Shown piece by piece: positions 26,767 through 26,960 of a stretch of 49,093 bases of DNA. The stretch lies in IMG/VR virus record IMGVR_UViG_2718218136_000007, positions 1-49,093 of that record; one strand, written 5' to 3'. The DNA is from a virus. Lineage: Duplodnaviria; Heunggongvirae; Uroviricota; Caudoviricetes. A program made the position numbers and the translations under genes. Position 1 is the first letter of the stretch; each line of letters opens with the position of its first letter. The notes below the pieces were generated by a model. That model was not told the origin of the DNA and did no database searches. It saw only the letters and a list, made by a program, of their open reading frames with translations.

Positions 26767-26960
26767 TGTTCATTCCACGGACAAAAACAGAGAAAGGAAA
26801 CGACAGAGGCCAAAAAGCCCGTTTTCAGCACCTGTCGTTTCCTTTCTTTTCACGGGGTGTTTTAAATAAAAACATTAGGTTACGGCGAAGAAGAACGGAA
26901 ACGCCTTAAACCGGAAAATTGTCATAAATAGCGAAAACCCGCGCGCCTTCCGCCCCGTGA
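26767..26960 (-). other. cos region (cosB plus cosN); predicted cohesive-end dodecamer at 26944-26955
   Basis: Minus-strand reads ACG-GGGCGGAAGGCG-CGCGGGTTTTCGCTATTTATGACAATTTTCCGGTTTAAGGCGTTTCCG... through to the Nu1 ATG; closely resembles the lambda left end as recalled, except in the second half of the 12-nt cohesive end. Confidence 0.7.

Follow-up and report, generated by a model that had tools for sequence, protein, structure and literature searches.

A lambda-like cos site with a changed cohesive end

The stretch of DNA analysed here (49,093 nucleotides in all, hereafter the window) carries a lambdoid prophage whose counterpart in ETEC H10407 is approximately 99% identical, and its cos site raises the question of whether a cohesive end that departs from that of lambda across most of its second half can still serve for packaging. 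An earlier note on this DNA had described the end in these terms, had called the interval from the Nu1 start codon to cosN nearly identical to lambda, and had offered two readings: either the prophage uses a different sticky end, or cosN is mutated and packaging is defective.

The descriptive part of that note is borne out by alignment. Lambda, as represented by the DE3 record (which labels the aligned 12 bases ‘cos site’), has the cohesive end GGGCGGCGACCT, exactly as given in the note, and the window has GGGCGGAAGGCG; an authentic lambda contig (locus L207) gives the same outcome. The two ends match at 7 of 12 positions, namely bp 1-6 (GGGCGG) and the C at bp 11, and they mismatch at bp 7, 8, 9, 10 and 12. 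On the minus strand, GGGCGGAAGGCG occurs a single time in the window, preceded by GTGGGTCCTTCTGATGACCTGAGCTCTCACG and followed by CGCGGGTTTTCGCTATTTATGACAATTTTCCGGTTTAAGGCGTTTCCG. From bp 13 to the Nu1 ATG (bp 190, window position 26766) there are 8 differences from lambda in 178 bp and no indel. Given this background divergence of 4.5%, five differences within one 6-bp stretch have a probability of ~1e-6 per stretch and of ~2e-4 when all 6-bp stretches are considered, and the cluster is therefore not chance scatter.

The elements to the right of cosN have been kept. The complex cosB (R3, I1, R2 and R1, with I1 assigned by position only) lies at the lambda distance from cosN, and the R3, R2 and R1 sequences are identical to those of lambda (Table 1). 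R3 occupies its published coordinates, 50-65 (PMC9026076), and the interval between R3 and R2 contains 6 substitutions relative to lambda without an indel.

To the left of cosN, on the side that corresponds to the lambda right end, the window sequence is unlike that of lambda except at the cosQ heptamer, and cosQ is separated from the top-strand nick by 22 nt rather than the 23 found in lambda. In our IMG/VR sample, 22-nt spacing occurs at 27 of 82 loci with the variant end and at 0 of 124 loci with a lambda-type end. Exclusive association of this spacing with the variant can nevertheless be ruled out, because 22-spaced flanks join lambda-type ends in complete E. coli genomes: a targeted search found at least 8 that carry another such flank, and the window-type 22-nt left flank, present in ~60 of 5,426 genomes, joins a lambda-type end in one (GDSC2227PM). 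The spacing and cosN polymorphisms are therefore independent. Just past cosQ, and on the strand opposite to the terminase genes, a 112-aa ORF (27086-27424, plus strand) stands in place of the lambda right-end accessory genes. Neither Pfam nor NCBIfam gives a match for this ORF, and the H10407 annotation calls it a ‘hypothetical protein’.

Table 1. Features of the cos region, terminase genes and interrupted tail gene in the window
Feature	Position	Strand	Remarks
cosN, CG-GGGCGGAAGGCG-CG	26942..26957	-	Nicks predicted by homology to lambda (PMC9026076)
Predicted 12-nt 5' overhang	26955..26944	-	Predicted from sequence
Predicted top-strand nick	between 26956 and 26955		Predicted from sequence
Predicted bottom-strand nick	between 26944 and 26943		Predicted from sequence
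cosQ heptamer GGGTCCT	26978..26984	-	Packaging-termination signal; sequence match, with identity and conservation per PMC4669245
cosQ-cosN spacer	26956-26977		Unrelated to that of lambda
cosB R3, AGGCGTTTCCGTTCTT	26891..26906	-	Critical Nu1 (TerS) binding site; cos bp 50-65; lambda sequence and position
R3-R2 interval	26847..26890	-	Place of IHF site I1 in lambda; position only, putative
cosB R2, GAAAGGAAACGACAGG	26831..26846	-	Inverted R repeat; cos bp 110-125; lambda sequence and position
cosB R1, CTGTCGTTTCCTTTCT	26791..26806	-	cos bp 150-165; lambda sequence and position
Nu1, small terminase subunit, 181 aa	26221..26766	-	Pfam Phage_Nu1, E = 2.4e-101
gpA, large terminase subunit, 641 aa	24321..26246	-	GTG start; Pfam GpA_ATPase and GpA_nuclease; carries the cosN-nicking endonuclease
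Truncated tape-measure ORFs	14832..16418 and 11132..12334	-

Predicted cleavage of the variant end

We consider that the window most probably contains a working lambda-type cos site whose cosN is a natural alternative allele and produces a sticky end unlike that of lambda, a reading that rests on sequence comparison and to which we assign a probability of roughly 0.85. Nu1 bound to the unchanged R3, R2 and R1 sites of cosB would, with IHF, position gpA on cosN. The gpA nuclease would then introduce two nicks with the 12-bp stagger of lambda, one following ...ACG in the top strand and the other following ...GCG in the bottom strand, and the ends would be separated. The packaged chromosome would thus bear the 5' overhangs GGGCGGAAGGCG and its complement CGCCTTCCGCCC instead of GGGCGGCGACCT, and since both derive from one duplex, the ends would stay complementary whatever their sequence. 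A changed right half would be tolerated because the bottom-strand nick is proposed to depend mainly on terminase being anchored at the neighboring cosB, and not on a reading of bp 7-12. We infer both the exact nick positions and the competence of the site for packaging.

As predicted, the nicks would fall between CACG and the cohesive end on the left and between the end and CGCG on the right, which places a 5'-CG-3' at both nick positions. These flanking CG pairs are present at all 82 variant and all 124 lambda-type loci, and the left CG was not imposed by the exact-allele IMG/VR scan or by the GTDB scan. Terminase might instead nick the variant elsewhere, leaving an overhang whose length or register differs from the predicted 12 nt, and nicking does turn inaccurate when terminase anchoring is disturbed (PMC9026076). 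However, the cosN-R3 spacing, which sets the bottom-strand nick, remains 37 bp as in lambda, and this together with the invariant CG dinucleotides makes shifted nicks very unlikely.

When the nicked-strand half-sites are written out (^ marks the nick), the top strand reads ACG^GGGCGG, the lambda bottom strand GCG^AGGTCG and the variant bottom strand GCG^CGCCTT, and these three have only CG^nG in common. The two overhangs have equal GC content (10/12). The hexamer AAGGCG that forms bp 7-12 of the variant (26944-26949) is found a second time at the edge of R3 (26902-26907, cos bp 49-54, within TTTAAGGCGTTTCC). We considered templated conversion from this copy and rejected it, as a 6-mer match within ~400 positions has a chance probability of ~0.1 and the match is probably a coincidence.

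An altered cosN in a prophage with a broken tail gene

The prophage has clearly suffered insertions. A 2.7-kb IS66-family element (ISCro1-like, 12243-14941) splits the tape-measure gene at approximately codon 492, and because of this the prophage probably makes no infectious particles and is tail-defective whatever the state of its cos site. Any lack of plaques would most simply be due to the broken tail gene rather than to cosN. The identical IS66-family element is present in the H10407 copy of the prophage, but there it lies in gpU. A second, 1.3-kb insertion (~41232-42561), missing from the H10407 copy, adjoins a yfdR-like 5'-deoxynucleotidase gene and encodes a 402-aa IS4-family transposase (NCBIfam NF033591, E = 4e-121) that we take to be IS10-like. 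At the edge of the prophage region (~43.9-47.1 kb), the H10407 annotation places a gene for the anti-phage defence sirtuin Dsr1, and this segment matches positions 1-3233 of our locus L125.

Given this state of decay, with insertions of both the IS66 and IS4 families, cosN could itself be a casualty: a damaged site that is not properly nicked, in a prophage that could neither mature its DNA nor package it. Of the six bases next to the bottom-strand nick, five differ from lambda, and the partial two-fold rotational symmetry of cosN is altered. The window retains the symmetric pairs (-2,14), (-1,13) and (2,11) of lambda, lacks (3,10) and (6,7), and has acquired (4,9), such that 8 of the 16 central bp are symmetric in the window and 10 of 16 in lambda; over 22 bp the count is 10 of 22 in both.

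Published genetics argues against reading these changes as damage. Right-half changes in cosN do not measurably affect cos cleavage, and many mutations of bp 7-12 have very little effect, but the symmetric changes in the left half have severe ones; G2C carries a cost of approximately ten-fold and C11G none (Feiss et al., 2015; PMC4669245). The features conserved among lambda-like phages are the left half of cosN, the CG pairs that flank the nicks, and cosQ (PMC4669245). Judged by its sequence, the window site fits this published rule, as its changes are confined to bp 7-12 and the positions that matter, namely the left half, the CG flanks, cosQ, the cosN-R3 spacing and cosB, appear intact. The published tolerance data derive from alleles with 1 to 3 changes, and the window allele has changes at 5 of the 6 positions.

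The variant allele recurs on many backgrounds

Recurrence is a further argument against damage. Among 5,426 complete E. coli genomes, approximately 4,100 of which have a cos region of either type, GGGCGGAAGGCG is present in 154 (165 places, 16 of them on plasmids), as counted with a 37-nt query that was seeded only by the variant. An exact-allele scan of IMG/VR yielded 77 contigs with the variant. A scan independent of cosB added 5 near-identical true cos sites, for a total of 82, along with 10 chance matches in GC-rich DNA; apart from these 5 sites, it showed the variant in no other cosB background. An allele-agnostic scan of the same collection returned, among the matches listed, at least 111 lambda-type ends, at least 6 copies of GGGCGGAAGGCG and two single-base oddities (at least 119 contigs). 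Within the GTDB scan, the variant was seen in Escherichia only (for example, Escherichia sp. E1V33).

Carriers of the variant are mostly prophages, of which the window copy and the H10407 copy both have IS insertions. Two deposited phages, PhiR46_1 and YDC107_1, also carry exactly GGGCGGAAGGCG, which answers the question of whether related phages share this cosN; no deposited phage record begins at the variant end. The record for PhiR46_1 gives ECOR13 as the host and contains a complete lambda-like set of head and tail genes over the stretch examined. PhiR phages are described, in the part of PMC13190303 that cites Brenes and Laub (2025), as a panel of temperate phages related to lambda that served in plaque assays. 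On the strength of this description and the host field, PhiR46_1 is presumably viable. A literature search found no text that names PhiR46.1 and no paper that names the exact 12-mer GGGCGGAAGGCG, the sole match to the latter being an irrelevant plant paper.

The variant is found on at least 38 distinct haplotypes spanning positions -45 to +70. Three left-flank 30-mers are common to the variant and other alleles, as are two right-flank haplotypes. Because the variant sits on so many haplotypes and shares flanks with the lambda type, the sequences indicate that recombination has moved it among backgrounds and that the allele has persisted, unlike a lesion in a decaying prophage. Decay would be expected to produce scattered private changes, and not one exact 12-mer that is shared by 154 genomes, 82 viral contigs and an isolated phage and sits on many haplotypes. 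Because the allele recurs, the reading that cosN is mutated and packaging defective is largely refuted, and we regard it as highly improbable. The other reading in the earlier note, a different sticky end, gains support from the same genomes, contigs, phages and flanks, and from the apparent tolerance of the right half for change. For annotators, it follows that the sticky end alone is no ground for calling such prophages packaging-defective.

During the GTDB scan we also encountered lambda cos sites with lambda flanks in unrelated representative genomes (loci L200, L204-L207, L209 and L211-L213). Among these are a Chromatiales MAG, Raphidiopsis brookii D9, Oceanobacillus profundus, Leeuwenhoekiella nanhaiensis, a 48,542-bp Shewanella canadensis contig and an Alicyclobacillus fastidiosus ‘plasmid’. 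Several of these contigs begin exactly at GGGCGGCGACCT and have ~1x coverage, and the whole set looks like contamination by lambda control DNA.

The terminase does not follow the cosN allele

Another possible account of the changed end is co-evolution of cosN with gpA, the altered site being matched by a terminase whose nuclease specificity has changed, so that the pair is distinct from that of lambda. The existence of two discrete alleles with almost no intermediates could resemble such a specificity switch. However, both terminase subunits are close to those of lambda. Nu1 is 98.3% identical, and its three differing residues (48, 75 and 132) lie outside the recognition helix (17-24) and the wing (31-39). 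The gpA protein is 99.4% identical, with four differences, of which only V459I falls in the nuclease domain. NCBIfam has no match for either protein; the assignments in Table 1 come from Pfam.

We compared gpA aligned from 92 loci, and Nu1 from 126, with the allele carried at each locus. No column of the gpA alignment tracks the cosN allele, the largest frequency difference being 0.26. Moreover, both alleles are found beside each of four different full-length gpA proteins and each of four different Nu1 proteins, and the Nu1 protein of the window is itself found 8 times with the variant end and 7 times with the lambda-type end. PhiR46_1 gpA is 99.5% identical to that of lambda, and none of its three differences is common with the four in the window. 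Since identical gpA and Nu1 proteins lie next to either allele, the terminase has not co-evolved with cosN. Co-variation is thus ruled out, and co-evolution of the pair, which the sequences already refute, is an explanation to which we give almost no credence.

Two main alleles and few intermediates

The functional alternative allele that we favor leaves a minor puzzle, which is the near-absence of intermediate alleles. The two main right halves, CGACCT and AAGGCG, differ at 5 of 6 positions, and the only near-intermediates that we observed are C7A and T12G. The first is present in an isolated phage, PhiR70_1 (L124, PV340577; positions 404-415, GGGCGGAGACCT), and the second in a single IMG/VR contig (L076, GGGCGGCGACCG). 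Each is a single step from the lambda end, and both steps are toward the allele in the window. One introgression event, recent common ancestry or weak selection against ends that do not match could each account for the scarcity of intermediates.

The last of these possibilities can be extended into a proposal that adds to our preferred explanation, in which selection acts on the right half of cosN, whose alleles serve as compatibility types for the cohesive end. Chromosomes with unlike ends, which could arise when the concatemers of co-infecting or co-resident relatives recombine, would be unable to anneal and circularise. Consistent with this proposal, bp 7-12 take only 3 states in 117 contigs, among the matches listed, as compared to 7-12 states for 6-mers of the cosQ-cosN spacer. 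Two mismatches between ends already cost approximately four-fold in yield (PMC4669245), and five would leave 7 complementary positions. The equal GC content of the two overhangs also fits.

Against the proposal, a circular monomer has one cos site and gives rise to a homoallelic rolling-circle concatemer, and mixed ends should therefore be rare. In addition, the sample consists mostly of closely related E. coli prophages, in which low diversity may simply reflect recent ancestry, and one introgression event could equally give the dimorphism. The conclusion reached by Feiss et al., moreover, is that selection does not act on bp 7-12 (PMC4669245). We therefore hold a role for compatibility types to be unlikely, although less so than a damaged site. 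The more general claim that the right half exists as a few discrete types (CGACCT and AAGGCG) and is not free to drift strikes us as slightly more doubtful again. If it were true, the types would be maintained as chromosomes with unlike ends cannot circularise, and cosN alleles would constitute a weak barrier to exchange among lambdoid phages that otherwise recombine freely and have one common terminase.

Comparison with known cos systems

Lambda, 21, 434 and phi80 have the identical cohesive end GGGCGGCGACCT, from which the window departs by 5 differences. With lambda the window shares the cosQ-cosN-cosB architecture, the cosQ heptamer, the CG flanks, and R3, R2 and R1 at the same coordinates. 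It differs in the cohesive end, in the distance to cosQ, and in having a spacer and more leftward DNA that are unrelated to the lambda right end. Lambda-like phages often differ naturally at bp 7-12 (Feiss et al., 2015; PMC4669245), and the variation in the window is of this already published kind, with GGGCGGAAGGCG present in hundreds of public sequences.

An experimental precedent is provided by N15 and phiD326, which differ from lambda at bp 9 and 12 (PMC4669245) and whose end we confirmed for N15 as GGGCGGCGTCCG. Like the window, these phages differ from lambda in the right half only and have a G at bp 12, but they have 2 differences where the window has 5. Experiments have demonstrated that lambda terminase cuts their end equally well, and that the yield on either cosN is the same with lambda-specific as with N15-specific terminase (PMC4669245). 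The cosB of N15 is simple, with R3 alone, and N15 packages with a specificity of its own; the cosB of the window is the complex one of lambda. The Salmonella phage Gifsy-1, as described in PMC4669245, is another right-half variant, with differences at bp 8, 9 and 11 and thus at other positions and in another host.

The phages PhiR46_1 (PV340565) and YDC107_1 (CP025712) combine the same GGGCGGAAGGCG end with a lambda-type cosB and terminase. They differ from the window in having a lambda-like left flank with the 23-nt cosQ spacing and another cosB-Nu1 haplotype, and their Nu1 proteins differ from that of the window at 13 residues. DNA of phages with this allele would not anneal to lambda-type ends. 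The window allele is a further natural example of the published rule that change at bp 7-12 is tolerated, and its right half is the most divergent of those compared here.
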